DNA of 64,000 bases, taken from assembly GCF_004010195.1 (NCBI RefSeq), contig NC_057717.1, positions 102,731,676 to 102,795,675 of the forward strand, written 5' to 3'. Under the pieces are notes generated by a model. The model saw only the letters and a program-made list of their open reading frames with translations, did no database searches and was not told where the DNA came from. Of this stretch, positions 2,236 through 63,788 are shown in pieces (the first letter of the stretch is position 1; each line of letters begins with the position of its first letter). The translations under genes and the position numbers were made by a program. Source of the stretch: Chiloscyllium plagiosum (Eukaryota).

Positions 2236-2802
2236 CCCCTGGATTGATTACCCTTATTTGCCCCGCTCAATGCCATGAGCTGTAGCCTGGTGGATGGTCT
2301 CCTCTGATGAGAAAGTGAGGTCTGCAGATGCTGGAGATCAGAGATGGAAATGTGTTGCTGGAAAAGCGCAGCAGGTCAGGCAGCATCTAGGGAACAGGAG
2401 AATATCAGAGATGGTCTCCTCTGATGGACAGGTTACACCAGCTGGTTCATGAACCTTGACTGTCCTGCCGTCACCACAGGCCGCCATCTCCCTCCAACCC
2501 TGCAGGCACTAATCTGTCGCTCTCACCCAGTCTCGGTGTCTGAGCAGGAATGTTATTACACACAGAGAATGCTGAACTGTCCTCGATTGATGAGAAGCTA
2601 AGATTTTAATCTTGCTCCCTGACAGGTATGAAGTGTGTGAAAGATGTCAGCATAGTATCAGCTCCATTTCCCTCTGGCCATAAGCTCACGTGCTGTTAAC
2701 ATGCCTGTACCTGACTTTACTCATCGTTAACATGGCTTCTCCTTCTGATAGATGCCTTTCTCTGATATCTGCTTCTCTCTCTCTCTCTCTCTCCAAACGC
2801 AG

Positions 2803-17800: not shown

Positions 17801-20800
17801 NNNNNNNNNNNNNNNNNNNNNNNNNNNNNNNNNNNNNNNNNNNNNNNNNNNNNNNNNNNNNNNNNNNNNNNNNNNNNNNNNNNNNNNNNNNNNNNNNNNN
17901 NNNNNNNNNNNNNNNNNNNNNNNNNNNNNNNNNNNNNNNNNNNNNNNNNNNNNNNNNNNNNNNNNNNNNNNNNNNNNNNNNNNNNNNNNNNNNNNNNNNN
18001 NNNNNNNNNNNNNNNNNNNNNNNNNNNNNNNNNNNNNNNNNNNNNNNNNNNNNNNNNNNNNNNNNNNNNNNNNNNNNNNNNNNNNNNNNNNNNNNNNNNN
18101 NNNNNNNNNNNNNNNNNNNNNNNNNNNNNNNNNNNNNNNNNNTCTCTCTCTCTGTCTCTCTGTCTCTCTTTGTCTGTGTTTCTCTGTCTCTGTCTCTCGT
18201 TCTCTGTCAATCCGTCTTCCCATCTCTCTCTCTGTCTCTATATGTCTCTCTCTCTCTCTGTCTCTCTTTTTGTGTCTCTCTATCTCTCTCTGTCTTCTCT
18301 CTGTCTCTGTGTTTCTCTGTCTCTGTTTCTCTCTTTTTCTGTCTCTCTGACTGTCTCTCTCCTGCCCATATTTAATAGTATCCTGAATATCGAAATTGCC
18401 TCTGAATGATGGTTAGTCTTTTATGTAGTCCACGAATCAGAGCCGTTAATGAAGTCCGAGTTAAGGACAGTCCACGTTGCTGGTGCAGTCAGCAACGATG
18501 ACCCACTCACAGTGGCACCCTCACAATTTTAATTTAAGGTCCATAAAACCAACTCTTTATTCTGAGGAAAGCTCAGTAAATTATTATAAACTAGCTGTCC
18601 TGCTGTTGATTAAGACATACACTGAAGGAGTTACTTGACCAAGTTTAATGATTGCATTCAGAACAAAACAATGGCTTATTTGATTTGATTTATTCCTGTC
18701 ACGTGTACTGAGATACAGGGAACAGTGTTTTCTGAGTGCTTTCCAGGCAGATCGCACTATACAGGTGCATCAGGGTAACAGAACAGAGTGCAGGATACAG
18801 TGTTACAGCCACACAGAAGGTGCAGATAGAGACCAACATTAACATTAAAGAGGTCCATCCAACAATCCAATAACTTGTTTCTATTTTCCTGCACTGTAAC
18901 GAAAGAAAAATCAAGATTGAAAATAGGTAATTCAGCCCATCTAAACCTATCACCTCCAGTCTTTATGTCATTCCTCCCAGCACCCAACTGCACTTTAAAC
19001 ATTCATCTTGTGCAGTTTTGCTTCTTCTGCCCAGCCAGGGAAAGCATCACACTCACTAAATATCTTTCTGAGTGATAAACTTCTTTTTAAATTGATATCT
19101 TAACCCGTTCGTATCTATGTTACCAATTCAGAACGGTGGTGGTGGTGGGGGAGGGGAGTGGGGAATCTGGTGGTGGCGACAATGACAAGTTCAGACAAGG
19201 AACAGGCCTTACCATTAAGGACGGAAAATATCCTATTTCACATTTAATATGTTGAGCAATCCATGATTTATACTCAGCATATGGAAAGAAATTGGAGCAG
19301 ACACTTCAGATTTGAAGTCTCTGTTACAGATTCCCTCCTTCCCTCCATATGACAGAATCACAAAATTGTTATAGCACAGAAAGAAGCCATTTGGCCCATT
19401 GTAGCTGTTCTATCCCCTAATGCCAACCTCCTTGTCTTGACCCCAGCAGCTACACACCGTGTCTATCCAAATAATTACCCGGTGCCCTCCACCACATTTC
19501 CAAAGCCCCTCATGGCTTGCTCTGTGAAAAAAAGTTTTCCCTCACATCACCCTTGCTTTGTTTGTACATCATCTTAAAATCTGTGTCCTCTGTCCCAGGC
19601 ATTTCACCATGGCATTTGGCAAAAGTTAAAACTGCATGTTTATCATTCCTGCCTCGTCAGTGCCAGGGAAACTGCAGTAACTCACCGAATCTCCCCTGAC
19701 AGCACCTTCCAAACCCACGACCACTTCCACTTAGAAGGACAAGGGCAGCAGATACATGGGAACACCACCCCTGCAATTTCCTCTCTGAGCCACCATCCCG
19801 AATTGGAAATATATTGCTGTTCCTTCAGTGTTACTGGGTCAAAATTCTCTCTCTAATGTCGTGATGGGTCAACCCACAGCACATGGAGCGGTTCAAGAAG
19901 GCAACTCACTACCACCTTCTCATAGAGTCAGACGGTCATACAGCATGGAAACAGACCCTTCAATCCAACCAGTCCATGCCGACCATGTTCCCAAAGTAAA
20001 CCACTCCCCCCTGCATGCACTTGGCCCACATCACTCCTAACCTTTCCTATTTATGAACTTATCCAAATGACTTTTAAACATTGTAACCATACCTGCACCC
20101 ACTACTTCCTCAGGAAGTTCATTCCACACACAAACCACACAAAATAGTCCCTTATGTCTTTTTTTAATCTTCCTTTTCTCACCTTAAAAATATGACCCCG
20201 AGTCTTGAAATCCCTTATGCTTGGGAAAAGTCAACTGTCATTCACCTCATCTATCCCCCTCATGATTTTATAAACCTCTGGAAGGTCACCCCTTAACCAC
20301 TTACATTCCAGTGAACAAAGTTTCAGCCTCTCCTTATTCCAACCCTCCCTTCCCAGCAACACCCTGGTTCATCTTTTCTGAACCCCCTCCTGTTTAATAA
20401 TACCTGTCCTGCTAACAAGGCACCCAGAACTAGATACAGTATTCCCAAAGGGGCTTCATCCATGTCCTGTAAGCCCAGCCAACCATGCCCACATCCCAGA
20501 AATGAATATAAGGAAAACAATCTGTCATTTGTGCACATGAAAAGACTGGTACATTTGCTGGGGCAACAATGTCAGTCAAAAAACATATGGGGTGCATGCC
20601 TATTGGCTGAGGCATACAAGACCAGAAAGGATATGCCAGAATGAAAACAGAAGTGCTGGAGAAACTCAGCAGGTCTGGGGAGAGAGCAACAGTTAATACT
20701 TCAAGTCCAAAGACTCTTCTTCAGGCCTGAAGTAGTTTGTGTTTATTTGGAAGGCTATAAAATGGTGGTTGGGTCTGGCTGGAGCACACTTTGCAGATCA

Positions 20801-23800: not shown

Positions 23801-26800
23801 AAGCTCTCTGCCAGTAAGTTTTATTTCAGGCAAAGTTGCATTCTTATTGAAGTGACGTATGCTGTAAATAAAGCCTAGCAATGTGACTATGATTCTATTA
23901 CTTAGTGGGTGTTTTTACATTGATTATATGGACCTCTTGATTTGATCAATTGGTACATTTCTGGTGCCCATAGGTGCTGAATAATAAAATGGTTGCAGTA
24001 CCAGCATTGTTATTGTAAGGGAGATTAGATGATTCAGCACCAAGTGGAACATTTATCATCTCAATGGCTTGCCATTGATTGGATGGGTTGTATGTGTGGC
24101 TGATCTGACTCCACTCCCCACCCCATTCAATGCCCATCCCTAACTCCTTTCTGAGAAGGTGTTGGTGAGAGATGTGGAACACATTGTCCGATCGGGTGGT
24201 GCAGACAGGTGCAGGGGTGGTGATGGTCTAGTGGTAATATCGCTAATCCAGACACCCAGGTGATGTCCTGGGTTCAAGTACGACAGATGGCGGAATTTGA
24301 ATTCAATAAAAAATATCTGGTATTAAGAATCTAGTGATGACCATGAATCAATTGTCAGTAAAACCCATCTGGTTCACTCACATCCTTCAGGGAAGGTAAC
24401 TGCCATCCTTACCTGGTATGGCCTACATGTGACTCCAGACTCACAGCAATGTGGTTGACCCTTATAGGCACTAAATGCTGAACTTGTCAGTGACACTCTC
24501 ATCCCATGAATTAATTAGTTAAAGTAGGGGTTTTCAAAAGGGAAGGCATTGTCTCTGGGTTAATAATTCTGAAGCTTGAGTGACATACTGGGGATCTGGC
24601 TTAGAATGCCACCATTTCAGAAGCTGCCCCTGTTTCATCCCTCTCAGTTGACCTCCCATTCTAGAGGTAAAAACAATGACTGCAGCTGCTGGAAACCAGA
24701 TTCTGGATCAGTGGTGCTGGAAGAGCACAGCAATTCAGGCAGCATCCGAGGACAGGCAAAATCGACGTTTCGGGCAAAAGCCCTTCATCAGGAATGATGA
24801 AGGGCTTTTGCCCAATTTTGCCTGTCCTCGGATGCTGCCTGAATTGCTGTGCTCTCCCATTCTAGATATGATCAAGGCCTCACAAGTCTCTTGCTGTCTG
24901 CTTCAGCCCAGCCTCATCCAGGAGATGGGTGTACCATACTGAGAATTCAATGTCGATAATGTAATGATGAAACTCTGACACTCGTTCCCGGGATTCTGAG
25001 AGGAGAGGATGGAAGATCCTCACTGTCTGCGAGTGATCAGTATTCCATCCGTTAGTGTGTTAATTAAAGAGGGTATTGAAACTCCTGCCAGTGTGCTTTG
25101 CTATTACAAGTGCACATTAAAATAGTTCTCCCAGGGTAGGCACAAATTACTGTAGATGCTGGAATCTGTAAAAACAGCAAATGCTGGAGATGACAACTCG
25201 TCAGGCTCAGCTAGACTTGAAACGTTAGCTTGCTCTTTCTGACCTGCCGCTGTGATCTCCAGCATTTGCTGTTTTCAAATCAGACCCAGCCTCTGCTCGA
25301 TAAAGCAGAACTGCAGCAGCCTCAGAGCAGGGGCAGTCCAGTCTAAGAGAGATGCCTCTGCCATACAGGACCAAATCCCCACTATCGAGGTAAGCAGAAA
25401 CCACTAGGCTTCAATAACATTGAGTTGTAACCATGGTATCAGTGCAATGTCTTTCTCTGAGGGTTAAGAGTCTCGGGGATTCCTTTCCTCAAAATGCAAA
25501 TTCTTTGCATAATTTTAAGAGTCAGATAGATTATTGGTGACCAAGGGGATGAAAGATTATTGGGGGATAGGCAGGAAACTTGAGTTGAGGTTAAAATCAG
25601 ATCTTATTGAATGATAGGTTAGGGTCAAGGGGCTGAATGGCCAAATGTTCATTGTTTATGATAAATTGCACAGTGCTGGGGTTCGGCTCTGTCGGTGGTG
25701 GGGTAGGTCAGGAACAAATCTTAATACACTTCATCGAATCATCAAATTCCTACAGTATGGAAACAGGCCCTTCGGTCTAGCAAGTCCACACCGACCCTCC
25801 AAAGAGTGCCCCACCCAGACCCATTTCCCTATTACTGTACATTTACCCCTGACCAATGCACCAAACCCACTCATCCCCTGAACACTATGGGGCAATTTAG
25901 CATGGCCAATCCACCCTAACCTGCACATCTTTAGATTGTGGGAGGAAACCGGAACATCTGGAGAAAACTCATGCAGACAAGGGGAGAGCATGCAAACTCC
26001 ACACAGACAGTCACCCAAGGCCTGAATCGAACCCAGGTCCCTAGCGCTGTGAGGCAGCAGTGCTAACTACTGAGCCATCATGTCACCCCAGCTGCATTTC
26101 TCGGATTGAGTTGGCACCAATGTGCGAGCGTGACTCTGGTGAGGCGGGAACACCTGGGTATGACAGACCATAGGCATTGTGTCATGTTGCTGTATTAACA
26201 CCCTGTCTTTCTTTCAGGGGAACTTTGGTCCAAAGGGACCACTCGGCCCAATTGGAGAGAATGGAGTACGGGTAGGTGCCACGCAAAGTCACAGGCTTTC
26301 TCATAAACTACACAGCCGTGTACCCAGCCAAGTGATGGAACAGGCTCGAGGGGCCGAATGGCATTCTCCTGTTCCCCATGTTCGTCAGTGAATGTGCGCA
26401 ACGTGTGATTTTGTTTAACATCCTGTGTTCCGCGATCTCTCTGCTGCTGCTTCCGTTTACCGAGACTCAGACGCCGGTGAGGAGGTGATTACCAGTCTGT
26501 CAGCTGGCGGTTGGAAATTTCCTGTCTGGGGGCTCCTTTAACAGATCGTGTGTTGCCAGGGAGCCCTGGAACTTGAGGAAGGTCGTGCACTGTGTCCTCC
26601 CCTGTTCTGTCTCTCCCAGCCAGGATCCTTCAAAGATCCGCTTCTGCTTAGTAAATATAAACGGAGCCAATGAGGAAATGAGGACTGCAGACGCTGGAGA
26701 TCAGAGTCGAAGAGTGTGGTGCTGGAAAAGCACAGCAGGTCAGGCAGCAGGAGAGTCAACGTTTCGGGGCATAAGCTCTTCATCAGGAATGTATGCTCGA

Positions 26801-29757
26801 AACGTCAGCTCCTCAGATGCTGCCCGACCGGCTGTGCTTTTCCAGTGTCACACTGAGGAACTGGCAAAGGGACCTGGATTTGTTACTGATTGCTTCCCTC
26901 TCCTTCTTGATCTTCCAGGGTGGCGACGGATCAGTGGGACCGAGAGGCTTACCTGGTGAACCGGTCAGTAAAGCTCTTTGAGGTTGTCTTGCTGTTTCGT
27001 ACATGGTCAAGGTCGACATTAATGATGTGTTTGCCTCCTTCCCTCAGGGACCACGAGGACTGCCAGGCCCGAGGGGACACGTTGGCATGCCCGGACAGCA
27101 GGTAGACCTTCCGATCGCGTGCATGTGCTCGCTGTAGTTCCAAGCCTGCTCGGCCTAACCCGTTACTGCTGGCGGGGAATCCTCAAAGTCTCCTCGGGAA
27201 CTGAGCTCCGCGCGGTCTCCTGCAGGCGGCAGGCCATTCAGCCCCTCACTTCCGACCCACTACCTCAACCATCTCCATCTTCCTTCACAGAGTCAAAGAG
27301 CTTCACAGCGCAGAGAAAGGCCCTTTGGCCCATCAAGACAATGTCGATCAAAACCAACTACCTCAACGTTCTAATCCCATTGCCCAGCACCTGGCCCACA
27401 GCCCAGTGTGCTTTGCTATTACAAGTGCACATTAAAATAGTTCTGCCTCTGCCACTCATACAGGCAGCGAGTTCCAGATTCCTACCACCCTTCCTCATAT
27501 TTCCCCCCCCCAAAACCTTCTGCACCTCACATTAAATCAATACTCACTGTCCCCCAGGACCTTCCCAAGGGGAATTTTTTTCTTCCTTTCTATGCTCCTC
27601 ATAATTTTAAATATCCCTATCCTCTGCCCCCAGTCTCAGTCTCCTCTGCTCTAAGGAAAATAACCCCAGTCTGTCCAATCTCTCTGCATCACTGAAATCT
27701 TCCAGCCCAGGTAGTGGTGGCAGTGGTTAGCACTGCTGCCTCACCGCGCCAGAGACCTGGGTTCAATTCCTGTCTCAGGCAACTGTCTATGAGGAGTTTG
27801 CACATTCTCCCCGTCTCTGCGTGGGTTCCCTTCGGGTGTTCCAGTTTCTTCTCACAATCCAAAGATGTGCAGGTTAGGTCAATTGGTCATGCTAAATTGT
27901 CCACAGTGTTCAGGGATGTGTAGGTTAGGTGCATTAGGCAGGGTTAAATGTAGAGTAGTAGGGGAATGGGTCTCTGTGTGAGATACTCTTTGGAGGGTTG
28001 GTTTGGGCTGAAGGGCCAGTTCCCACACTGTAGGGATTCAATGATTAAATCTCCTCTGCACCCTCCTACACACTATACTCTACCTGCGGCCCAACCAACA
28101 TCTTATACAGTTCCAGAATCACCTCTCTGCCCTTAATCTCTCTGCCTTGGCTAATAAAGGCAAGTATCACATATTCATTCATCACCATTTCACATCTTAG
28201 TATCAAGAAAGATATCAGTCTCTTTGACTGTTCCCTCAGTGGCTGAGAATCCTTCCCCACTGAGGGAACAAGTTCCTCCTCATGTCATTCTTAAATGACC
28301 CGCCCTTTATTCTGAGATAGTGCCCCCTCCTTGGTTCTCCAACCCCAAGAGTGACCATCATCCTTTGTACATCCAGTCTGTTGAAGTCCTTTAAGAACTC
28401 TGTGGTTTTTCAATGAGATAGAGAGCCCTGTCCTGTCGCTTCTCCAGATGGTCTTTGATCACAGCTTTAATGTCAGAAGAAGACAACACTCAATGGAGGG
28501 CAAATGTCCCCCCACACCTAACAACAAAACGTAGTTTCCGAGCTCTGGTTCAGAAGTCTAGTTCCCTGCCTCTCTACATGCTAGACTGATGTACAGAGAG
28601 TCTTAATGAAGTCTAGGGATAGTCCACATCAAAATGTGCCATTCACAAGGAGATATGTCCAAGTTGCACTTGGGCAAAGAGTGGATGGTACTACATTGCA
28701 GGAGGCTGTTCAGCACCTTGAGTCTGTGCTGGCTTTTTCACAGAATCATCACAGTGGTGAAGCAGGCCATTCAGCCCATCAAGGCCACACCAAACCTCTG
28801 AACAGCATCCTCATCCTGTAGCCCAGCATTTGTCATGGCTAAAGCATCTGACCTGCACATCTTTGGACTGTGGGAGGAAACCCACGCAGACACAGGGGGG
28901 AATGTGCCAACTCCACACAGACAGTCACCCAAAGCTGTAATCGAACCCGGGTCCCTGGCACTGTGAGGCCGCAGTACTAACCACTGAGCCAGTTTGCACA
29001 GAGTAATCTTTCACAGAGCAATCCAGTTAATCCCCAAACCGTTGCCACATCCCGGCACTTTTTCTTCCTCTCCTGTGAATTTATGGAATTCCCTTTTGAA
29101 AATTCCTACTGACTCTGTCACCCAATCAGACAGCATGTTCCAAATTTCTTACCAATGTCTTAACAAAGGGTAATTAAGGATGGGAATTGAATCAGGGGCA
29201 GGGGGAAGGGGTCACATCAGCAAAACGTACAAACCACAGAAAAAAATCAATCTGAACCACTCAAAACTCCATTTTCATCAAGTTGCATGTTTTGTTTTGG
29301 CCAACTGCCTTTCATTCTCACACTCTGGTTAGTCACAGTTCAGCCATTGTAATAGTTTCCCATTACTATTCCATCAACCCCTCTCTTGGCCTAGTCTACT
29401 CTGAGGAAGGAGCAGCCTTCCTGTGGGTACATATTTATTTCCCAGACGTTAGAAGCTGGGCAAATCGAAAAAATACGAAGAGTAGAAGTATTCTCCTTGT
29501 GTCTTCCTGCTATATGTTGGTGCCTCAATACTTCCCCTTGATGAAGAATCGACCCATGCAGTCTACATGGGCACGTATAGCATTCTAGGGAACTTTAACA
29601 ATTCTCAATATCTGACCAAAGTATGAGCTGATTTGTTGTTGACTGTCTTGACTATGTATTGTGTATTTAACCCAATCGCTCACTGTCATGGATGGTCGGA
29701 GTAATTCAGCTGTGAATTCCTTTCCAACTTAAGGCCAAAATTGTGGCTACACACACA

Positions 29758-35700: not shown

Positions 35701-38700
35701 CCAGAACTGAATTGAGAGTGTGGTGCTGGAAACGCACAGCCGGTCAGGCAGCATCCGAGGAGCAGGAGAATCAACATTCCAGGCATAAGCCCTTCATCAG
35801 GAACTGAACACAATATAGCAACTGTGGTCTACCAGGACTCTATAGAACTGCAGCCTCACCTCAAGGCTCTTAAAATCAATCCCCCAGCTAATGAAAGCCA
35901 ACAAACCATATGCCTTCTTAATAACCCTATCAACTTGGGTGTCAGTTTTGAGGGATCTATGGACATGGGCCCCAAGATCCTGCTGTTCCTCCACACTGAT
36001 TGAGGATGTTTCCTTAAAGCAGATGAGATAGAGGGAGCATGTGATTGAAATGTACAAAACTCTGAGGGGCATTTATACGGTAGACAGGAAGGAAAACTTC
36101 CTCTTGATGGAGGGATCAATGACCGGGGGCATAGATTGAAGATAAAGGGAAATGGTTTAGAGGAGATATGAGGGGAAGACGTTTTCACCCAGAGGGTGGC
36201 GGGAATCAGGAACTCACTGCTTGTAATGAGGGAGAGGCAGAAACCCTCATCACATTGAAGACGTAAGTATTCAGATGTACACTTGTGATGCCTTGAGTGG
36301 CATACAGTTCAGAGGGTTGGTTTAGACTCAATGGGCCAGATGGTCTGCTTCTGCACTGCAGGGATTCTATGATAACTCTCTTCCCCTTTACACCCCAGAC
36401 TCTACTCTCCCTGTTTCTCCTTCTCTCCTCCTGTACATCCTAAAACCCACTCTCCCATGTTTCTCTCTCCCTGCAGTCCCCAGTCCCCACCCTGACAGCT
36501 CTCTTTCCCCAACTCTCTCTCTCACTGAGGGGCCACGGCAATGTTTGAGCCTCAAACTAGGATCACTGTGGTGGGCTACAAGATTGGAAGCACCACAGGG
36601 AGTGATGCAGCATCATATAGAGTCATAGAGATGTACAGCATGGAAACACACCTTTCGGTCTAACCCGTCCATGACGACCAGATATCCCAACCCTATCTAG
36701 TCCCATTTGCCAGCACTTGGCCCATATCCCTCTAAACCCTTCCTATCCATATGCCCATCCAGATGTCTTTTAAAGTTGTAATTGTACCAGCCTCCACCAC
36801 TTCCTCTGGCAGCTCATTCCATACACGTACCACTCTCTGCGTGAAAAAGTTGCTCCTTAGATCCCTTTTATACCTTTCCCCTCTCACCCTAAACCTATGC
36901 CCCCTAGTTCTGGACTCCCCCACTGCAGGGAAAAGACTTTGTCTATTTATCCTATCCATGCCCCTCCTGATTTTATAAACCTCTATAAGGTCACCCCCTC
37001 AGCCTCCGACACTCCAGGGAAAACAGCCCCAGCATGTTCAGCCTCTCTCTGTAGCTCAAATCCTCCAACCCTGGCAACAGCCTTGTGAATCTTTTCTCAA
37101 CCTTTTCAAGTTTCACAACATCTTTCCAATAGGAAGGAGACCCGAATTGCACGCAGTATTCCAAAAGTGGCCGAACCAATGTCCTGTACAGCTGCAACAT
37201 GACCTCCCAGCTCCTCCATTCAATGCATTCACCAATAAAGGAAAGCATACCAAACACCTTCTTCACTATCCTATCTACCTCTGACTCCACTTTCAAGGAA
37301 CTATGAACCTGCACTCCAAAGTCTCTTTATTCAGCAACACTCTACAGGATCTTACCATTAAGTGTATAAGTCCTGCTCTGATTTGCTTTTCCAAAATGCA
37401 GCACCTCACATTTACCTAAATTAAACTCTATCTGCCACTCCTCAGTCCATTGGCCCATCTGATCATGTGAGGTAACCTTCTTCACTGTCCACTACACCAC
37501 CAATTTTGGCGTCATCTGCAAACTTACTAACTATACCTCCTATGTTCACATCTCCTATATAAATGATGAAAAGCAGTGGGCCCATCAGAATTGGGTCCTG
37601 TAGCCAAGGGGCGAGTAAAGGTCCCTGTTGAATGCTGCGACGGTTAATAATGTTTGGAAATAAAAATTGATGTTGTGGATCTGACCTCAACAGATTCTGA
37701 CAGTTAGGCAACAACTCACAGGATATTGGCCAATGGTGGAACTCAATCCCAATGGTTAAGCCTTTCAAAAAAGTACCTGTAACCAGCACACTGTTGGGAA
37801 CAAATAATCTGTAAAATCATGCAAAGGTTTGTTCTTCCTCTAATCATCGTTGAATAGTAGATTTGTGAGTAATCTGCCTGCACCAAACAATGCAAACACC
37901 TTGTTCATCTTTGGAGAGTAAGAGATGGAGATGCATGAATTTCTTTTTCTGTTGTTTCAGGGAATAACAGGTGCTGATGGTCATCCAGGTCAGAAAGGAA
38001 ACTTGGTAAGGAGTCATTTTAAATGTGACTTGGATTTACATTTTTTCCACATTGACTTTATGTTTCCAGGAGTAGGAACAATTTTTAAAAATTAAGTCAT
38101 TCATGTTGACATTGCTGGTTGGGTCAACATTTATTGTCTGTCCCAATTTGCCTCTTGAGAAGGTGGGGTGAGCTGCCTTCTTGAACCGCTGCAGTCCATG
38201 TGCTGTGGTTGACCCACAATGCCCTGAAGTGGGCATTTCCAGGATTTTGACCCAGTGAAACTGAAGGAATAGCAATATATTTCCAAGTCAGGGTGGTGAG
38301 TGACTTGATGGGGAACTTGAAGGTGGTGGTGGCTGCTGCCCTTGTCCTTCCAGATGGAAGTGATTGTGGGGTTTGGAAGGAGCTGTCTGAGGATCTTTGG
38401 TGAATTTCTTCAGTGCATCTTGTAGATAGTGCACACCGCTGCTACTGAGCGTCGGTGTTGGAGGGAGTGGATGCTTGTGGATGTGGTGCCAATCAAGCGG
38501 GCTGCTTTGGCCTGGATGGTGAGAAGCCCCTGCACCACAATGCCAATAAAACAACAATCACAAGTTGCCTCTAATTTCAAGCAAGCTGAAAGTGACTTGA
38601 CTTTGATATCTTTAAAAAGAGTTCAATATGGGCGAGGTGGAGAAAAGTGATCCCTGCACAGTGAAGATCAATATGAGATTCATTGATATTTGATACTCAC

Positions 38701-41700
38701 TCATAAGTATAACAACATTCATTGCATTCACATAGCACCAATTAATACTGAGAGACATTGCAAGGTACTTCATAGCATAATTTCAAGCTGAACTCGGCAT
38801 TGAGTCATGTCATCAACCATCAGGAAAGCTAACCAGAGGTTTGGTCCAGGGGTTTGCTAATCTGGGGAGAGATTTCCTGGATCCAGGCAGCTGAAAGCAT
38901 GGCAACTGTTGGCAAGGATAATGAGACTCAGGATTATACAAGAGGCCAGAATGAGTTGTGAGCTGAAACCTCGGAGGATTGTACATTTGTGAAAGGTTAC
39001 GGTGATGAGGAGGCGAGGGATTGGAAGACCAATGGAGAATCCTGGAAAAACCCGTTTAACCAGAGAGTGGAGAAATTGCAGTTATAGAGTTATACAGCAT
39101 AAAAACAGACCAAGTGTCTTGCAGTAAGCTAGTCCCCCTTGCCTGCACGTTTACAGATCCCTGTAAACTTTAATATTCATGCACCTGTCCAAATGTCTTT
39201 TAAATGTTGTCATTGTACCTGCATCCACCACTTCCAATGGCAATCCATTCTGGGAGGTTTCAGCATTGACTCTGGATCCCATGAAGTCTCATGGCTTCAG
39301 GTTAAACATGGGTAAGGAAACGTCTTGCTGGTTACCATGTACTGTCCTCCTTTGGCTCCTTCTCCATGCTGATCAACACTTAGAGGAAGCACTGACTGCC
39401 CACTTCACTCTCCAATTTTCAGCCCATTTCACCAGAAAGCACCTTTCCCCCCCATGTCCCTTCCCTTGGAGGTACAGAACAAACGGATGACCCAAAACCA
39501 GTTCCTCTGACAAAGCCTGCTCCCAGGGACAATCAGAAGCGTTCAGGAATAAAGGCAAAACACTGCAGATGCTGGAAATCTGAAAAAAAACACAGAGCAT
39601 GTCCAGCAGGTCTGGCAGCATCTGTGGATAGAGGGATACAGAGAGAGAGAGAGAGTTAACATCCAGTAAAACTCTTCTTTCAGAGTCCTCTGTGTTGTCA
39701 GGTGTGACTAAAGGACAAAGTGAGACATTGGTCTTCCCCATTGCTGTTCCTCTGGGACAAGGGAGCCCATTGGACCATCTGATCTGACTCCTGAGGCTGA
39801 TTCTGAATTGTGACAAGCCCCATCCCATTGGATCAATGAATATAGTTCCACTGGATATAGGCAAGCCAACCACAGAGCTCAGCGTACTCCACCGTTTTAC
39901 AAATCCATCATTTCTAATGCTTCAATTGAGGACAAGAGGTTCAGGTCTGTACAGATCAAGTTTGATTTACAAGGACCTGTTGGTGAGACGGGGAAGAGAC
40001 TCAATGCGTTTTAAACCCATCGGTTGGAGACTCCTTGATGTCTTTGCCAATTAACTTCTCGACCCCAATGGCTTCTCTGGCGGAGGCTAGTTGTTATTGC
40101 ACCACCATCCTCTCATGATCAGTATCGGAATTCTTAAACTTCCTCGATAGCGGATCAGATTAACCATAAAACATGACAATGTTTCCCTGGGCTCCACACT
40201 GACACTAAAACAGCAAAATAATGGGAATGTATGACGGCAATCAAAAAATGTTCAAAATATATCGCCCAAGCTGCCCTTACGAAGGTGGTGTTTAGATCAG
40301 AGTGGTGCTGGAAAAGCACAGCAGGTCAGGCAGCATCCGAGCTGGAAAATCAACGTTTCGGGCAAAAGCCCTTCATCAGGAATAAACTCTGGTTTCCAGC
40401 ATCTGCAGTCCTCTCGTTTGCCTTGAGAAGGTGGTGGTGAGCTGACTTCTTGAACTGCGTTAAAAATCTCACAACACAAGATTACAGTCCAACAGGTTTA
40501 GTTGGAAGGCACAGTGTGCTTCCCCTTCATCAAGTAGCGAGTGGGGCAGCATCATAGGGCACAGAATCTGTAGTAAAAGATATAGCGAAGGAGCAGTGCT
40601 ATGAAAGCTAATGCTTCCAAATAAACCTGTTGGACTTTAACCTGGTGTTGTGTGATTTCTAACTTTGTCCACCCCACACTGGCACCTCCACATCTTGAAC
40701 CGCTGCAGCCCACCTGCTGTGGGTTCACCCACAATGCCCTTAGGGAGGGAATTCCAGGATTTGGACGCAGCGACACTGAAGGGACGGCGATATATTTCCA
40801 AGTCAGGATATTAATTTGGGACGTGGGCATTGCTGGCTGTGTCAGCGTTTATTGCCTGTCCCTAATCGCCCTTGAGTCCTTGGTCTGGCTAAACTGACAG
40901 CTCCTGTTGTGTTTCCAGTACAGTACTGATTGCTCTTTTTTATTAAGAGCATGCATTTTACATTGTGGTTGTACCATTGCACATGAAGACAAACTCCGGT
41001 AAGTGAACAGGCTATGAAAAGTGTGCTCTCGCACTCTCCTTTCCTCCCAGTTACATAGTTGCATTGAAGCAGTAAAAGTTTACTTCTCCAAGGTAATAAC
41101 CGTGCTTTTGAAATACTTGTGCGCAGTAGATGCTTTAAGGGCAGGTTTAAGTTGACTAAAAATTACGATGAATTCCTGAAGGCACAGCAGTTCCGAAGGG
41201 CGATTGACTCAGCCTTAAATGTGTCAACAGATCGTTCAGTTCTCCATGGATTTGGGTATAAGCTATCCACAAACTGCTTTTCAAGTCCCAACAAAGTCTC
41301 AAGGTCATTCACAGGGCATGAGGAGCAGCAAGCTGTTATACATGCAGACTTGGCGATGGGTGTTCGCACAGCAAGATCCCAGTAATCACAGAGAGTTAGA
41401 TAGACCAGATAATCTCTGTTGGAGGTGTCTCTTGTGGAGTAATATTAACTGGTATCCTGAGAGGAGTGCCCCAACCTTCAGACAGAGCCTCAAATACACT
41501 CACCTCCAATGCACCTCACACCCTCCAATGCAACATATCCCCACCTCCAATGTGCCTTACACCCACCTCCAAAGCACAGATTTTCTGCCAAGGTAGAGAG
41601 CTTCAGACTGACTCAGCACTCTACATTGGGCACCTGTCAATGAGGGCTCAGACTCCAGGAAGACAAATCTACAACAACGCAATGAAATCCACTTTACTCA

Positions 41701-50700: not shown

Positions 50701-53700
50701 AGTTCTGGACTCCCTCACCCCAGGGAAAAGACCTTATTTATTTACCCTGTCCATGCCCCTCATGATCTTATAAGCCTCTATAAGATCACCTCTCAAACTC
50801 TGAAGCTTCAGGGAAAACAGCCCCAGCCTATTCAGCCTCTCCCTGTAGCTCAAACTCTCCAACCATGGCAACATCCTTGTAAATCATTAGATGTATGTGC
50901 ACGCCTGGTGAACGGTGGGACTTCACTAGGTCTGCTATCTTTTTGAAAGACTTGTTAATGAATATCAGAGAGGTCTCCTTTCTCTCCTTTTCAGTGCACT
51001 CTGTATATCTGGTTGAACTTATTCTGTCCCTCCAAAGAGCAATTGGAACACCAACAGTAACAATGGGCCAACACATTTGTATCCGTATGTTGTAATTGGC
51101 AACAAAAGCGCTGAGATTTAGAAAGGTCTTAGTGTAAATCGTCAATTTAAGACAAACATCAGTTTCCACCTTTCCTTTCCCTGTTCAGAAGCCTACATAC
51201 GTTACAGAAAAACTCAGCTCTTTTTAACTCATTCCAATCACCAAATTGACGGGCGCGCAGTGGGGGGTGCTGTAATGTTAAGCAAAACAGAAATTGGGAG
51301 AGGCTAAGGGGAATTAAACCAAACTGTTGTTGGAAAGGGAGATAATATACTCCAGGCCCCATATATTCCTAAAAGGTCTAGGCTACCTTGGTAAAATATT
51401 TTGAGGGGGGTCTGGTTCAGTGGGCACTGTCGTGCTCCCTCTCCAAGGAGAACTGGGCAATGGCTAGAGGACAGGGGTAGCCATCGGGATTGATGACCGT
51501 AGAGCTCAGCTCTTAAATGCACATCCCAGTGAATGTTGCCTGCTCTCTGCCAACTCTCTTTATGCATTAAAGTGACCCGTGTGTCTAAATGTGGCAGCAT
51601 TAGCTGCAACCTTTCTGATGTGGGAACAGAAATCAGTGTGAAGGAGAGCGTGCTGAAGAAGCTTCTTCACCAGATTATGAGGCAGCAGCGATTCATAACG
51701 CAAAGGCCTGGGAACGGGCTGCTTGCCAGGTCTCCTGGGAGTGTGGCCAACCTTCCAAGACTGCCCCTGGAGTCTCCAGGGACTAAAGACTAATCCCTGG
51801 GCAATGCTTTGAGCAGCCCTTGCCAGGAAAACCATAAAGGGGAATTATAAGACACCTTATGTTTAAATATTCCCTAAGTAACTGAGTTTATTAATTGTGA
51901 AAAAATAAACTTTTGGAATCACGGGTCTGGAAGGTTGTTACAGAGGGTGGAACCTCCTGAAATACGGAAAAGTCGAGCGAGAAATTTCGGGACTAAATCA
52001 AACAATTTACAGCGTGGGGTCAGGCAGAAAATAATGTTGGAAGTTTCCGACTACAGCCGTTTAAAGGGTTATGAAAGGCCTGCTGCGCTTGATATGCTTT
52101 GCTAAATTTACTGCGTTAATTTGAAGTGACGCTATTTAGTTAAGAATGATTTTTGTTTCGTTCTCAGGGTCACCCTGGTCGAGAGGGTCCTGCAGGTGAT
52201 AAGGGGAATGCGGTATGTTCTTTACTGACTGTTGGAAAGATGGTTGCTGGGTGTAAGTGGGTGGTGATTGTAATGTTCCACAGTTCTGGGTTTGGCTGTG
52301 TGAGTCTGTTTACTCCTGTGACAATGCTGTAGCATTAAGAGGTTATTTTGTCCTGAATTTTTTAATTGATTGAATGAGAGGCACCAGGCTAGCTACTGAA
52401 GACCACTTGAGTAAACAGCTTGAGAAGCCTTGGGTTTTATGCATGCAGCCTGACAGGGTGTGGCCAGCTCTCATTGATCAGGATTACCTGAGTAGCATCA
52501 GCAGCTGTTGGGGTCAGAACAGAATCGGGAGCTTCAGTGAATGTCTCCTGGCTGCTACTCTCTCTGAATTTTCTCTTGATGTTTTTCTTCCTCCTGGATG
52601 GGAGAACTGTATGTGAGAATCTATGTCTGAATTTGCCTTTTTGCCAAGGGGCATGTTTATGGGATGTTACTATATTCAAACAGTTCATAAGTAATAGTTA
52701 CTGCATCTATTATTCTATAAAGTTTTCCAATAGAGTTGTTAATCTAAGTTCCTTTTTCTTTGGTTGTATTTTAACTGCATTGTTTAAAGAAATAGTGTTG
52801 TGCTTCACATTGAGTTATTTGACCATCACATCGCATCGGGAACAGACACTTTATATTTTCCTTTAAAATAAGAATAAGTTAGGGTCTAGGCTACCATGGT
52901 AAAATATTTTGAGGCAGTCTGCTCTAGTCCATAACACTCCTGATGCTCTGTGGTTAGCACTGCTGCCTCACAGCGCTTGGGTCCCAGGTTCGATCCCAGC
53001 CTCTGGTGACTCTGTCTGTGTGACGTTTGTACATTGTCCACGTGGGTTTCCTCCCGGTGCTCCGGTTTCCACCCACAGTCCAAAGATGTGTAGGTCAGGT
53101 GAATTGGCCGTTCTAATTTGCCCATAATGTTAGCTGCGTTCGTCAGGGAGGAAATGGATCTGGGTGGGTTACTCTTTGGAGGGTCGGTGTGGACTGGTTG
53201 GGCCGAAGGGCCTGTTTCCGCACTGTAGGGAATCTAATCTAATCTAAATTGAGAAGAAGCAACAAACAGGGGATGTGGATGGCGTTGATGTGTCTGACTG
53301 AGGTGCATGATGGTCCCTTTGTTAACGCCCAACTTGGCCAATGAGGAAGGATACCACATGTATAGTCCGCTTCGTTGATCAGGTTAATATGAGGTTTTCA
53401 GGTTTGAATGCAGCTTTCAATGACAAGCTTTACCCCCGATTAGACTCCTGACTTCAGCATCTCTCTCAAAATGTGATGCTCAGTCACATTTGAAACCATT
53501 ACAACCACATTCTTGTGCCATGTTGCAGGGTGCAGTGGTGGTCTAGGTGGGGAATGACCTCGGACTTACATGCTGGGACAGTGAGGTGAAGAACCGAGAT
53601 TGTTCATGGCTTTAATTTGGACAGAGTGAGTGAGGGCTGCAGATGCTAGAGATCAGAGTCGACAGTGTGGTGCTGGAAAAGCACTGCAGGTCAGACAGCA

Positions 53701-56700
53701 TCGACGTTTCGGGGAAAGGCCCTTCATCAGGAATCATTTAGTTTGGACTGGTCACCCTACCCTCCCAGTTGGAAGGCCCAGTGATTGTATTTTTTCCTTC
53801 TGCCTGACTCCTTCCCTCAGTGATTTAAGATTCTCGAGTCGAACTTCCAGCAGTGGGGAAAGTACAGAGTTTCTAGCACCTCCAGCAGCACCCCTCACTT
53901 CCCTGGAGATGTGGACTCTCTGGGTGAAATAGTGCAGTTTCTGTTGGAGCCCAGCCCTGGGGTCTGTGCCTTGCTGGGTCTTACTGGAAGGTGGACTTCC
54001 TGTTGGAACGAAGGCAACTGCATTTATATAGCACCTTTCTCAACGTGAGGACTAGCACCCCGATGTGCTCTGTCACTGATTAATTACTTCTGGAAGGGTA
54101 GTTGCTGTTGAAGGAAAAGCAGCAGCCTGTTGATGCAAAGTGAGCTCCCACGACCAGCAACGACGTAGTGACCGGTGACGTTGGTTGAGGGTTAAGTGTC
54201 AACTCCACCCCTCTTTTCCCCCCCCCCCCCCCCCCACCCCCCCACCCCATTCTCCTTGCAGGCCTGGGATCCTATATGTCTTGTCTGTGCGGGGAGATGT
54301 TAGACATCTCGTCCAAAATAGTTCCTCTGGCGCTATCGCACGGTCGTGTACTTTTGAGGGGGTTGGTTGAGGTACCAGTCTACATTGGATGCTCAGGTCA
54401 ATGCAGTGAGATTGGACGACACTGAGACCAGGTGCTGGTGCCTGGGCCAGGATCCATCCCTGGATTAAGGGTAGTCTCTGCAGCATCCCCAGCCTGTTGC
54501 TGGACCTGCCTCAAACTGGTGTTTGAGATTTTGCTGCAGCTGCAGTCTGCCCCCTCAGTATTTCACACACATCAGCCTGTGTAGCTACATTTTGTTCCCA
54601 TGCTATGAGTTGATGCTCCGAGCCCCCCAGCTGTTGTGGGCAGATGTGGAGAGTTGCCCGTAGGGAAATTCGGAAGGAAGGAGAAATCCTTATGGCAGCT
54701 GCTCAGGGAAATACTGTGGCTCGAATAGAGCCCTGGGTGTCACCCTATCCCTCAGCATCACTCACTCTGTAATCCCGCAGTCCACCGCTTTCCAGTGACC
54801 CCTGCTGGATAAAGCAGCAAATGCCAGGCAAGGCCAGTCGGTGGTCTTCATTGCAATGCCACACGCTGTCAGATAGCAAGTCAACTCTTAGCTGCTACTG
54901 GAACATTGTTCACAGAATTGCTGACTGTGGGCCGAGCTCAGCCTGAATCCTGGAGAAGGGTTGTATTGTAGAATTAAAGATTGTAAGTCATGCAGATGTT
55001 GTGAGTTGCCAGTTATTGCATTAGGGTAACACTTCTTAATTCCCAATCTTCCCCTTCATCCTACTGACTCTTTAGTGTTCTACTCCAGGAAAGAATGTTC
55101 TTGTTTCTTTCCTTTTAAAGTTCAGTTGTCAGTTCAATACAAATGTCATCAGAATTGTTTTTTAACAGGGTCCTGCAGGTGCACAGGGTCCAGTCGGATA
55201 TCCTGGGGTTCGAGGTGTCAAGGTAAGAAGGTTGCAGAAAAATGTAGTGTGTGAGGGATGTGGGCATGCAATCTATGATTGTGTCTGTGTGTGCGCGCGC
55301 ACACACGTGCGTGTGTGTCTGTGTGTGCGCACGCACACACGTGCGTGTGTGTCTGTGTGTGCGCGCGCACACGTGCGTGTGTGTCTGTGTGTGCGCGCGC
55401 ACACACGTGCGTGTGTGTCTGTGTGTGCGCGCGCACACACGTGTGTGTGTGTCTGTCTGTGTCTGTGTGTTTGCATGTCTATGTGCATGTCCCTGAGTAG
55501 ATGGGTGTGTGTGTATGTCCATTCAATTTTGTGTCTGTATGTGTGTGTCTTTGCTAGTAAGTGTGTCAATGTTAACGGTTCACAGGTTGGAATGAAATAA
55601 GTTGGCCAATGCAGTGTTTGTCAGGTAATTCAGGTTATTAAAACATCCATTGTTCTATGTGGCACTGAGTTTACATTAGTTTACCGCAATAGGTTTCTGC
55701 CTATAAAATGTATCTGAAACCTTCAAAGAAAACTCTCTCTTCAATTTGCGGAATGTTTAGTTCCTAGCCTCTGATTGGATGTAACTGAGTAAAACGTTTG
55801 TGATGAAACCGAAAAACCCAAACACAGAGATACACATACAGACCCTCACCCTCACCCTCACCTGCAGACACTCACTGAGACACACGCACACACTGAGACA
55901 CACACAGGCACACCATGAGAGAGAGAGAGAGAGACACACACACAGAGGCACACCATGAGAGACACACACACACCATGAGAGACACACACACACACACACA
56001 GGCACAGATATACACACGCACATACAGATAGACAGACACACACACACACACCTGACTGTGGGCTGTGACCTGAGAAACCACTGACTGGGAGTTAATTCAG
56101 GCACCTGTCCTGTTTGATGCTTCTCTAACCTGCATTCCCCTCTCTCGGCAGGGTGCTGATGGAGTCAGAGGACTGAAGGGACACAAGGGGGAGAAGGTGA
56201 GGAAAACCTCCACTGCAATAAAAACAAAATACTGCAGATCCTGGGCACCTGAAGCAAAAACAGACAGTGCTGGAGGAACTCAGCAAGTCTGGCACCCTCT
56301 GAGGAGGGAGGAGCAGAATAAACTCTTCAACTCCAAAACGAGCCTTCTGAGTTTCTCCTGCACTGTCTGCTTTTAGTTTAGGAAAGCCCCACACAGTATA
56401 ACTTGTAGCTAAAGATGCTAACCCTCCAGACTGGTCCTGGAGTTTCTGATCATTCTCTACAGCACCATTGACAAAAGAGAAAAACACAGATTGTAAGGGT
56501 TGGGCAAACCTTTCAGTCTATTTTACATTTTTTGCTTCAGTTTCTCACATTTTTAGTTTGCTAGTTCCAAAATGGAGACATTTTATAGAAGTGTTTAATC
56601 TTTCGCTCTCTGGGACAATTGCCATCACTTGTGAACTAATCAGTGCCCTCCTCTCAGGCACTGCCTCATTGGTGGTTTTCCCTTTCATTTGGTATTCTTG

Positions 56701-63518: not shown

Positions 63519-63788
63519 NNNNNNNNNNNNNNNNNNNNNNNNNNNNNNNNNNNNNNNNNNNNNNNNNNNNNNNNNNNNNNNNNNNNNNNNNNNNNNNNNN
63601 NNNNNNNNNNNNNNNNNNNNNNNNNNNNNNNNNNNNNNNNNNNNNNNNNNNNNNNNNNNNNNNNNNNNNNNNNNNNNNNNNNNNNNNNNNNNNNNNNNNN
63701 NNNNNNNNNNNNNNNNNNNNNNNNNNNNNNNNNNNNNNNNNNNNNNNNNNNNNNNNNNNNNNNNNNNNNNNNNNNNNNNNNNNNNNNN
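63519..63788. other. Assembly gap (270 N) flanked by CT-rich tracts
   Basis: N run. Confidence 1.

Follow-up and report, generated by a model that had tools for sequence, protein, structure and literature searches.

A hairpin-shaped insertion of probable Penelope origin, with a minimal hammerhead core, in a collagen intron of Chiloscyllium plagiosum

What kind of element left, in a collagen intron of the shark Chiloscyllium plagiosum, a short stretch of DNA that folds back on itself almost perfectly and carries a hammerhead core on one strand, and is that ribozyme likely to do anything there? A preliminary description of the stretch analysed here (64,000 nt, hereafter the window, to whose first letter all coordinates refer) had read positions 24666-24853 as a copy of an abundant, retrozyme-like family of hairpin-shaped elements, and had proposed that the antisense orientation of its copies could reflect selection against self-cleavage of the host pre-mRNA. 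Our results support, with good confidence, a model whereby 24666-24853 is a heavily 5'-truncated insertion of a Penelope-like element (PLE) that is joined to an inverted 5'-truncated copy and was dead on arrival. In this model the hammerhead would be a passenger.

The 188 bp form a single insertion, bracketed exactly by a perfect 13-bp target-site duplication (Table 1). Because 24792-24794 are the native TTC that lies 5' of the minus-strand copy, this copy begins at -3, and because the junction sits at U4, the plus arm is devoid of C3. The plus arm terminates within the stem-loop of the 3' module and overlaps the duplication by 2 nt; its end corresponds to neither of the regular 3' sites of the family, which fits the fold-back model set out below and is not direct evidence for it. 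Relative to the minus arm, it matches over its first 19 bases, then has a gap of eight bases (GAAACGTC) after 24813, and shows one mismatch over the next 32 bases compared. A 28-nt stretch spanning the deletion has a single match in the 3.56-Gb genome, which is this locus; the loss is probably a mutation that arose later and is confined to this locus, through slippage from one CG dinucleotide to another and a subsequent CpG transition. Around the GGAA/TTCC centre both strands fold back (-136.5 and -134.6 kcal/mol; z-scores -16.8 and -14.7, with 0 of 200 shuffles folding as well), and RNA from this copy is predicted to form, at the former energy, a 64-bp hairpin from which only GAAACGUC bulges out.

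Table 1 Features of the insertion at 24666-24853 and related copies in the window. Strand is that of the copy; a dot marks features without strand.
Feature	Coordinates	Strand	Basis or remark
Left target-site duplication copy, 13 bp, CTCCCATTCTAGA	24653..24665	.	identical to 24854-24866
Optional 35-nt 3' tail of the probable PLE insertion	24666..24700	-	far 3' end of the minus-strand copy, without poly(A)
3' module downstream of the predicted cleavage site: GTGCT/AGCAC stem-loop and AC-rich short end	24701..24763	-	sequence
Minimal type I hammerhead core	24764..24791	-	features fit the min-HHR description (PMC4209133)
Fold-back centre, GGAA on the plus strand	24791..24794	.	fold and sequence
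Inverted 5'-truncated copy (short arm)	24795..24853	+	starts at U4, without C3
Right target-site duplication copy, 13 bp	24854..24866	.	sequence
Second hairpin-type insertion	26672..26856	-	minus copy 26672-26791 with near-intact core; inverted arm 26808-26856 cut within the hammerhead
Minus copy with intact core, ending at the short 3' site	40290..40413	-	tail segment inverted at the 5' end (40383-40413)
Solo copy, core boxes intact	53629..53736	-	starts about 4 nt upstream of the core; duplication of about 12 bp
Solo copy, decayed core (GAAAC to GGAAT)	35713..35803	-	sequence
Copy 5'-truncated at about +29, adjoining the predicted cleavage-product start	2309..2403	-	duplication of about 17 bp

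The stability of the hairpin on both strands is compatible with a hairpin RNA gene, that is, with a microRNA precursor or another structured RNA and not a transposon remnant, and Rfam returns weak matches to hairpins of microRNA families, such as mir-3158 (49.5 bits). However, all such matches reach about half the gathering score or less (49.5 versus 97), any long inverted repeat yields matches of this sort, the arms consist of a repeat that is present about 100,000 times, and the unit bears a target-site duplication. We consider a hairpin RNA gene highly improbable, and continue with the insertion of a PLE.

On the minus strand, 24764-24791 reads CTGATGA-A-GGGC-TTTT-GCCC-GAAAC-GTC, which comprises C3 to A9, an additional A, a helix II of 4 bp capped by a UUUU loop, G12 to A14, an ACGU palindrome and C17, with the cut predicted between 24764 and 24763 (C17 and G1.1). 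All conserved hammerhead core bases (CUGAUGA, GAAA and GUC) are present on this strand, there is no helix III loop, and the cleavage triplet GTC fits the NUH form. The core has all four traits of the minimal hammerheads (min-HHRs) described in PMC4209133: the two catalytic boxes, CUGANGA and GAAA, are both conserved; the extra base at 9/10.1 is an unpaired A; the G10.1-C11.1 pair is present (A-GGGC...GCCC); and the loopless palindromic 15.2-16.2 stretch is ACGU, which follows straight after GAA where helix III would be and could allow pairing of one copy with another. Pairing in helix I is marginal, with C-G and U-A followed by a U.U mismatch and A-U. The pattern CTGANGA-N6-30-GAAAC has seven matches in the window versus 1.41 expected, and 0 of 100 shuffles reach seven. 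Three further cores lie on the minus strand at 26761-26786, where helix II contains an A.C mismatch plus an additional C, at 40355-40379, and at 53706-53730, where helix II has a C.C mismatch at its top. The preliminary description had anticipated much of this, having given the boundaries of the element, its near-perfect fold-back around GGAA, the intact minimal core on the minus strand, the loss of a core segment from the opposite arm and the additional antisense cores; the absent C3 of that arm had gone unremarked.

The hammerhead model scan that had been named as a check on the motif did not return it: across the window no Rfam family attained its gathering score, and two stretches searched down to E<=10 gave no match to any hammerhead family; the Rfam hammerhead models expect helix III. 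Nearest-neighbour folding is not a method by which hammerhead cores can be judged; it favours the active form neither for the monomer (z -0.44) nor for a two-copy dimer modelled one base out of register, from which we draw no conclusion. In published work, Penelope hammerheads show weak cleavage and need dimers or protein help; minimal hammerheads cleave poorly even as dimers (PMC4209133; for dimers see also Lunse et al. 2017, cited in the review PMC6765202), and a study of an Anolis PLE reports no reads ending at the cut site (PMC11167929). Because the complementary arm is predicted to pair with its core, the hammerhead of 24666-24853 is very unlikely to act as a ribozyme.

The connection with an autonomous PLE comes from longer copies, in which 5' truncation is variable and the sequence reaches 400-700 nt upstream of the hammerhead. 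The DNA upstream of the hammerhead in these copies codes for a GIY-YIG motif (Pfam PF01541, 22.8 bits versus a cut-off of 22.6 and hence marginal, 0.2 over) as well as a C-x4-C-x2-C linker, with the hammerhead about 250-300 nt downstream of the endonuclease-coding frame. At one locus (L040), RT motifs followed by the same endonuclease occupy one 410-aa frame, for which 62 longer proteins were found at E<=1e-10; PF01541 is present in 15 of the 62. In two homologues, each about 800 aa long, RVT_1 spans about 290-480 and GIY-YIG about 705-785. RVT_1 was below its cut-off in every shark fragment scanned, the first four ORF fragments gave no Pfam match while later fragments gave marginal matches, and the readable part of the DNA upstream of long copies, most of which is N, contained no full-length ORF joined to this exact hammerhead subfamily in one open stretch. 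A long copy about 70 kb before the window start also has an RVT_1 fragment immediately upstream of it. In agreement with the Penelope assignment of the preliminary description, the min-HHR traits are thus combined with an RT and GIY-YIG ORF upstream in longer copies. A Cys-rich CX2-5CxxC linker between RT and endonuclease is a trait of the Neptune clade, and the C-x4-C-x2-C motif, the one character used for this placement, suggests that the parent was probably of Neptune type. In this parent, the hammerhead would lie in a terminal repeat just downstream of the RT-endonuclease ORF.

Copies of the family have two discrete 3' ends about 35 nt apart, the intervening segment being the tail of PLEs. 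Nine of 30 anchored loci (L001-L030; 26 plus and 4 minus among the matches listed, from which many minus-strand matches are absent) end before the 35-nt tail segment and 16 after it, and in an unbiased sample the 3' end falls at +63..+95 in 19 blocks and at +112..+130 in 34. By comparison with the Anolis PLE (PMC11167929), the 3' module would be the reverse-transcription entry region. Target-site duplications vary in length among copies, and there is no poly(A). Hairpins recur: those at L012, L025, L026 and 26672 have differing junctions and arm lengths, L026 is the mirror image of the 24666-24853 element, and the 26-nt fold-back junction (-3/U4) is found at 131 loci genome-wide. This recurrence of one junction could also mean that some hairpin units have been copied again. 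Among 51 blocks in 224 kb (the window plus 160 kb around it), there are 11 head-to-head pairs, one tail-to-tail pair and no head-to-tail tandem. As to the pseudo-LTRs that partial tandem copies form in PLEs, same-strand cores lie 776 bp apart in L014/L015, and L034, seen in part, appears to pass from the endonuclease frame into a further unit.

We suggest that the insertion at 24666-24853 arose as follows. The PLE enzyme would have nicked the intron and started reverse transcription within the PLE RNA, using the outer one of its two entry sites, which would be why the copy carries the 35-nt tail. About 130 nt would then have been copied through the hammerhead as far as an RNA end 3 nt upstream of it, at which point the new DNA may have folded back, copied itself for about 60 nt and joined the target via the 2-nt overlap. 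The outcome of these steps would be an inverted duplication enclosed by the two copies of a 13-bp target-site duplication, with the hairpin as a by-product. The proposal of a distinct hairpin-shaped family is not supported, as copies run into RT and GIY-YIG sequence, junctions and arm lengths vary and the deleted arm occurs once in 3.56 Gb. The label retrozyme-like is not supported either, with 0 of 51 blocks head-to-tail and a hammerhead that is minimal, not canonical; what survives of that claim is the abundance of the family. The exact 27-mer core has 20,210 copies genome-wide, 119,183 cores are within two mismatches of it, and a 33-nt anchor from the 3' module has 49,083 exact matches.

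A less expected point is a 5'-end hot spot beside the hammerhead. In 21 of 53 unbiased copies (about 40%), the 5' end falls at -10..0, with starts 2-9 nt upstream of the hammerhead, versus 3-8 per neighbouring bin between +1 and +45 and 11 for all positions further upstream, with BLAST end points being good to a few bases only; there is no matching pile-up at the predicted cleavage site. This is not the distribution that plain random 5' truncation predicts, and the available parts of PMC8557442 and PMC11167929 contain no description of such a hot spot. Thirteen of the 30 anchored loci share the same 5' end or junction position near the hammerhead, and target-site duplications abut ends at -7..0 in L013, L020, L021 and the copy at window coordinate -28236. 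Among 26,334 exact cores, the native TTC at -3 is kept in 22,251 and the native sequence to -10 in only 11,788, counts that also drop through mutation.

These ends, together with the -3/U4 junction at its 131 loci, make it tempting to speculate that PLE enzymes copy a dedicated non-autonomous retroposon of about 95/130 nt (hammerhead plus entry module) as a LINE copies a SINE, that this unit has its own RNA 5' end just upstream of helix I, and that hairpins form when reverse transcription reaches the RNA end. The terminal repeats of PLEs reportedly contain the transcription start of the downstream unit (PMC6765202). However, the short units are plain sub-segments of long copies with no sequence of their own, the promoter and RNA start are putative only, and if the promoter lies upstream, then the short copies are dead ends and not a lineage. 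We regard a dedicated retroposon as possible, though rather unlikely. With similar reserve, we note that the template RNA of about 40% of the more than 100,000 insertions might start 2-9 nt upstream of the hammerhead and end at either entry site, making for a Penelope-driven SINE-like unit whose RNA starts with the ribozyme. If so, the hairpin copies would be a record of enzyme fold-back at the RNA end, and the lack of a 5'-end pile-up at the cleavage site would imply that the hammerhead rarely cuts before copying. For 24666-24853 itself we retain the truncated PLE insertion with an inverted copy.

Is the hammerhead maintained or avoided in genes? Two CpG-decay variants of the core, of which G12A is dead and C11.1U is not, are equally common (5,329 and 5,346 copies), and the bulk of copies therefore decay neutrally and are not maintained. 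In the window, all family copies are antisense to the collagen gene, and in this the reported antisense bias was correct; the 7/7 pattern does not persist over the 80 kb that follow within this gene, and the gene span seen contains nine unpaired antisense blocks versus eight unpaired sense blocks, plus seven inverted pairs. On the explanation offered for the bias, intact hammerheads in sense orientation within introns would cleave the pre-mRNA and be eliminated or inactivated, leaving intact cores mainly in antisense. Consistently, intact cores of this family in the gene span are four to five antisense (24767, 40355, 53706 and 78577, with 26761 near-intact) versus none sense, and among four sense copies over the hammerhead region and one truncated within it, none has a working core (65485, core deleted; 132918, both boxes mutated; 104075, GTC changed to TTT; 107273, no C3; 95826, truncated). 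Hammerhead tandem repeats are reported to be depleted from Xenopus genes in a 2026 preprint (10.64898/2026.07.22.740005). But these numbers are tiny and too few to decide (5 versus 0, p ~0.06), four antisense copies are broken too, and all-copy orientation in the gene is close to even. At 17-28 kb upstream of the first Gly-X-Y exon there are two intact cores on the plus strand, which may still fall within the same gene (no collagen N-terminal exons were found upstream among the 100 of 389 plus-strand ORFs scanned). Genome-wide strand counts are even in every search, with 10,037 plus to 10,173 minus for exact cores at 0 mismatches. The equal frequencies of G12A and C11.1U, the poor cleavage of minimal hammerheads even as dimers and the Anolis reads mentioned above also argue against host selection, which we consider improbable.

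A strand bias of intact cores that appeared among the matches listed for the first 15 Mb of contig C1 (76 plus to 24 minus) was rejected: a 0-mismatch search gave 44:56 in 0-9.56 Mb of this contig, overturning that listing, and CpG-variant controls in its first 15 Mb gave 16:21 and 21:20.

Similarly to the min-HHRs of metazoan PLE terminal repeats (Cervera & de la Pena 2014, PMC4209133), the shark motif has a type I layout with both boxes, A9 is followed by an additional base, the G10.1-C11.1 pair is present and helix III is replaced by the palindrome ACGU; the motif is located just downstream of the RT-endonuclease ORF, and it occurs mostly as solo motifs from truncated elements with some opposite-strand pairs. 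Unlike the Schistosoma min-HHR families, in which helix II has 7-8 bp, it has a helix II of 4 bp with a UUUU loop, and its copy number, counted here by sequence, is far above the ~4,000 (coelacanth) and ~9,000 (Xenopus) in the same work. Endonuclease-positive PLE insertions, as described by Craig et al. 2021 (PMC8557442) and Frangieh et al. 2024 (PMC11167929), likewise have strong 5' truncation, a target-site duplication, a 30-40-bp tail at either end, two internal reverse-transcription start sites and, adjoining the 5' end, an inverted copy that is itself 5'-truncated, whereas the unit here is extremely short at 188 bp. The inverted-copy architecture is already published for PLEs, and 24666-24853 alone is an ordinary transposon remnant, an example of a described kind.

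Two groups of short elements are also comparable. Metazoan non-LTR retrozymes (Cervera & de la Pena 2020, PMC7229834; Li, Clavereau & Pollet 2026, preprint, 10.64898/2026.07.22.740005) are, like the shark unit, short, non-coding and hammerhead-bearing, show relatedness to the terminal repeats of PLEs and probably depend on PLE enzymes for their mobility, but they are head-to-tail tandems with canonical type I hammerheads and circular RNAs, in contrast to the dispersed arrangement (no tandem) and minimal motif found here. The schistosome Sm-alpha/Sj-alpha SINE-like hammerhead elements (PMC6765202) are likewise short dispersed hammerhead-bearing retroposons; in these, a promoter belonging to the element precedes a canonical hammerhead, whereas any promoter of the shark unit is putative.

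The roughly 119,000 near-intact cores of this shark are among the largest sets of minimal hammerheads for which we found a figure. The family is thus a natural data set for asking whether Penelope hammerheads cut RNA in living cells and, if they do, at which step of the cycle, and it offers three patterns that can be tested genome-wide, namely the 5'-end hot spot at the ribozyme, the lack of one at the cleavage site and the equal decay of the CpG variants. Locally, a long hairpin in a collagen pre-mRNA could matter for RNA editing or small-RNA production.

Our analysis identifies the element at window 24666-24853 as a truncated, inverted-duplicated Penelope-like (PLE) insertion that carries the minimal hammerhead ribozyme (min-HHR) of its repeat family, family A, a kind of insertion already described. 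The preliminary description had given the same boundaries, and they enclose exactly one insertion because perfect 13-bp duplications bound it on both sides. The minus-strand core is intact, as had been proposed: all conserved type I hammerhead bases are present (C3-A9, G12-A14, A15.1, U16.1 and C17), helix II has 4 bp, an additional A follows A9, and the palindrome ACGU stands where the helix III loop is absent. In defining the minimal hammerheads of PLE terminal repeats, Cervera and de la Pena listed three traits that the window core shares, namely an extra base after position 9, a G10.1-C11.1 pair and palindromic positions 15.2-16.2 (PMC4209133). The inverted arm and the forward copy are identical over the first 19 bases; the arm then lacks 8 bases (GAAACGTC), a loss noted earlier, and has 1 mismatch in the 32 bases compared thereafter. 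It also begins at U4 and so is without C3. The fold-back is indeed near-perfect, a hairpin of ~64 bp on both strands (-136.5 and -134.6 kcal/mol) equalled by 0 of 200 shuffles. In the RNA fold, GAAACGUC is the sole bulge, and the opposite arm base-pairs with the CUGAUGA box and with each helix II strand, so that the ribozyme is predicted to be structurally locked despite its intact core.

Features of the window element, related copies and N runs (window coordinates; values above 64,000 lie in the flank)
Feature	Coordinates	Strand	Description
Duplication	24653-24665, 24854-24866		13 bp, two perfect copies
Inverted arm	24795-24853	+	first part of insertion, minus-strand reading
Native TTC bases			second part, between inverted arm and forward copy
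Forward copy			third part, hammerhead, then 63-nt 3' module, then 35-nt tail
Tail	24666-24700		end of forward copy
Hammerhead core	24764-24791	-	CTGATGA-A-GGGC-TTTT-GCCC-GAAAC-GTC
Predicted cleavage	between 24764 and 24763
Window copies with 5' end near hammerhead	24792, 26791, 35803, 40386, 53734
Broken antisense copies	35713, 66598, 96759, 107142
Second family	4978-5004, 44703-44744	-	minimal hammerhead
Second family (flank loci L046, L049, L050, L055)	79026, 92618, 98847, 98907, 110549, 128487
N runs	17720-18142, 63519-63788

The link to PLEs comes from long copies of the family (loci L004, L023 and L024), which reach 400-700 nt upstream of the hammerhead, where the DNA codes for a C-x4-C-x2-C linker and then a GIY-YIG motif. 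Two further loci have an endonuclease frame: at L034 the Pfam GIY-YIG model scores 22.8 bits (cut-off 22.6), and at L040 a 410-aa open frame runs from RT motifs through the linker to the endonuclease. Compared with longer proteins, the L040 frame has 62 matches at E<=1e-10, mostly of 730-950 aa with RVT_1. Of the 62, 15 have GIY-YIG in addition. In two matches that were rescanned, RVT_1 lies at ~290-480 and GIY-YIG at ~705-785. PMC8557442 gives an RT with a GIY-YIG endonuclease C-terminal to it as the architecture of canonical endonuclease-positive PLEs. The endonuclease fragment alone yielded 116,709 first-look genome candidates, 150 of which were scored, and the long "open frames" in that search were artefacts of N runs. 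The DNA beside the long copies reads largely N, and N runs in the fetched loci begin ~10-330 nt upstream of the long-copy hammerheads, for which reason they probably cover retroelement ORFs. The two N runs within the window may be either assembly gaps or masked DNA.

The hairpin had been taken for the form of a retrozyme-like family. BLAST searches with seven natural copies detected 51 family blocks in a contiguous 224 kb (the window and 80 kb on each side), with adjacent pairs that are head-to-head (11) or tail-to-tail (1). Metazoan retrozymes are tandem repeats with canonical hammerheads (PMC7229834; preprint 10.64898/2026.07.22.740005), and the window element has neither feature; with no same-strand adjacent pair among the 51 blocks and a hammerhead that is minimal, not canonical, the label is not supported. 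The hairpins differ in junction points and arm lengths, and a 28-nt stretch spanning the 8-base deletion has a single genomic match, the window element itself. We therefore conclude that the hairpin shape is a recurrent product of insertion and that the arm was disabled by a private mutation. Its sequence is compatible with slippage between two CG dinucleotides and a later CpG-to-CpA change as the origin of the deletion. The window element's 26-nt junction is matched exactly at 131 loci, and the same gene contains another, older example at a distance of 83 kb.

Published PLE insertions have similar features. Min-HHR motifs are mostly solo remnants of truncated elements, some of them paired on opposite strands (PMC4209133); in the account of Craig et al., insertions are heavily 5'-truncated and often have an inverted 5'-truncated copy directly against the 5' end as well as a 30-40-bp tail, which can be at either end (PMC8557442); and Frangieh et al. 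report for an Anolis PLE two internal RT start sites in an AC-rich stem-loop, the tail being the stretch between them, and an enzyme by which both DNA strands are extended (PMC11167929). The window element is consistent with all of these descriptions, as is copy 40290-40413, with the tail inverted at its 5' end. The solo copy at 66598-66728 has 16 extra bases between target-site duplication and 5' end that derive, in inverted orientation, from its own short 3' end, in effect a very short hairpin arrangement. Cleavage by min-HHRs is weak and was limited to dimers and constructs with an artificial helix III (PMC4209133), and the Anolis hammerhead cleaves only with protein, is dispensable for insertion in vitro and has no RNA-seq reads ending at the cut site (PMC11167929).

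The proposed abundance of the family in this shark is confirmed by searches of the 3.56-Gb genome, in which the window lies on contig C8. The 27-nt core has 119,183 matches at <=2 mismatches (59,724 + 59,459) and 20,210 exact ones, a 25-nt core has 26,334 exact matches, and a 33-nt anchor from the 3' module has 49,083, with 0 matches for the reversed-pattern control in each search. In thirty loci of 3 kb, each with an exact core at its centre, 5' ends are variable and 3' ends fall into two classes, ~+90 to +100 (n=9) and ~+121 to +136 (n=16), separated by a segment of ~35 nt. Of the remaining five, four continue into neighbouring repeats, and the hairpin arm of L026 stops at +70. Four loci (L006, L012, L025 and L026) have an inverted copy at the 5' end, and L026 mirrors the window element, with a forward arm that ends in the same stem-loop and a tail on the inverted arm.

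About 40% of family copies have 5' ends clustered 2-9 nt ahead of the CUGAUGA box. Counted from the C of this box, the 5' end lies upstream of -10 in 11, at -10 to 0 in 21 and at +1 to +45 in 21 of 53 blocks with the 3' module (an unbiased sample from the 224 kb and the flanks of anchored loci; BLAST ends are good only to a few bases). Three of the last group have their 5' end at +25 to +31, around the point where the predicted cleavage product would begin (+28), and thus form no similar cluster there. In several copies, direct reading showed duplications that adjoin a 5' end at -7 to 0. Genome-wide, 22,251 of the 26,334 exact cores have the native TTC at -3 and 11,788 have native sequence to -10, a fall due in part to mutation. 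Hairpin junctions at -3 to -5 in the window element, L025 and L026 coincide with the cluster. These ends suggest a template RNA whose 5' terminus may often be fixed immediately upstream of helix I. This terminus may correspond to the transcript start reported in PLE terminal repeats (PMC6765202); an enzyme reaching it would fold back and yield a hairpin copy. We met no description of the cluster in the portions of the PLE literature compared.

Gly-X-Y exons of 45-108 bp lie on the plus strand throughout the window and span window coordinate -9838 to beyond +142,695, with at least 48 exon matches spread over >150 kb of the window and its flanks (L043-L058); the 5' end of the gene was not found within 80 kb upstream of the window. 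Because these exons surround the minus-strand core, the element occupies an intron of a fibrillar-type collagen gene, antisense to it. The seven family copies initially detected in the window all lie on the minus strand, and selection had been suggested as the cause of an antisense bias. This antisense-only pattern breaks down outside the window: the gene span seen holds 9 antisense and 8 sense unpaired blocks, some from a related second family, together with seven inverted pairs, and the downstream 80 kb alone holds 8 sense and 5 antisense unpaired blocks. Intact family-A cores in the span number four antisense (five counting 26761) and no sense, and none of five sense copies read has a working core (core deleted, both boxes mutated, GTC to TTT, no C3, and truncated, one each); four antisense copies are broken. 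These core counts are too few to decide on selection. Upstream of the first Gly-X-Y exon, at a distance of 17-28 kb, are two intact plus-strand cores in DNA that may still belong to the gene. Forward and reverse totals genome-wide are even in every search, strand ratios being taken from totals or 0-mismatch searches; a 76:24 bias on contig C1 arose because the list made with mismatches allowed had dropped many exact minus-strand matches (complete, 44:56). The CpG at C11.1-G12 serves as a natural decay control: exact copies number 5,329 for the dead variant G12A and 5,346 for the C11.1U variant, and these near-equal counts lead us to conclude that G12 is not maintained in bulk copies, as expected of dead insertions. 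On these counts, the selection argument is not supported.

Three further antisense cores had been named in the window; all are present on the minus strand, and helix II is defective at 26761 and 53706. The descriptor CTGANGA-N6-30-GAAAC has 7 matches in the window versus 1.41 expected. Rfam gave no family at its gathering score in the whole window, and in two stretches where the threshold was relaxed to E<=10 its hammerhead families still gave no match, as expected because the motif has no helix III. A second minimal-hammerhead family has the box CTGAGGA, a 5-bp helix II (GGGUC/GACCC; GGGC/GCCC in family A) and a 3' module clearly related to that of family A. Its helix II is intact through an extra U-A pair, hence covariation between the families, and every copy seen is decayed.

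On the plus strand, window 24718-24858 forms a near-perfect 64-bp hairpin (-134.6 kcal/mol) in the collagen pre-mRNA, and this predicted structure could be subject to RNA editing or be processed into small RNAs.
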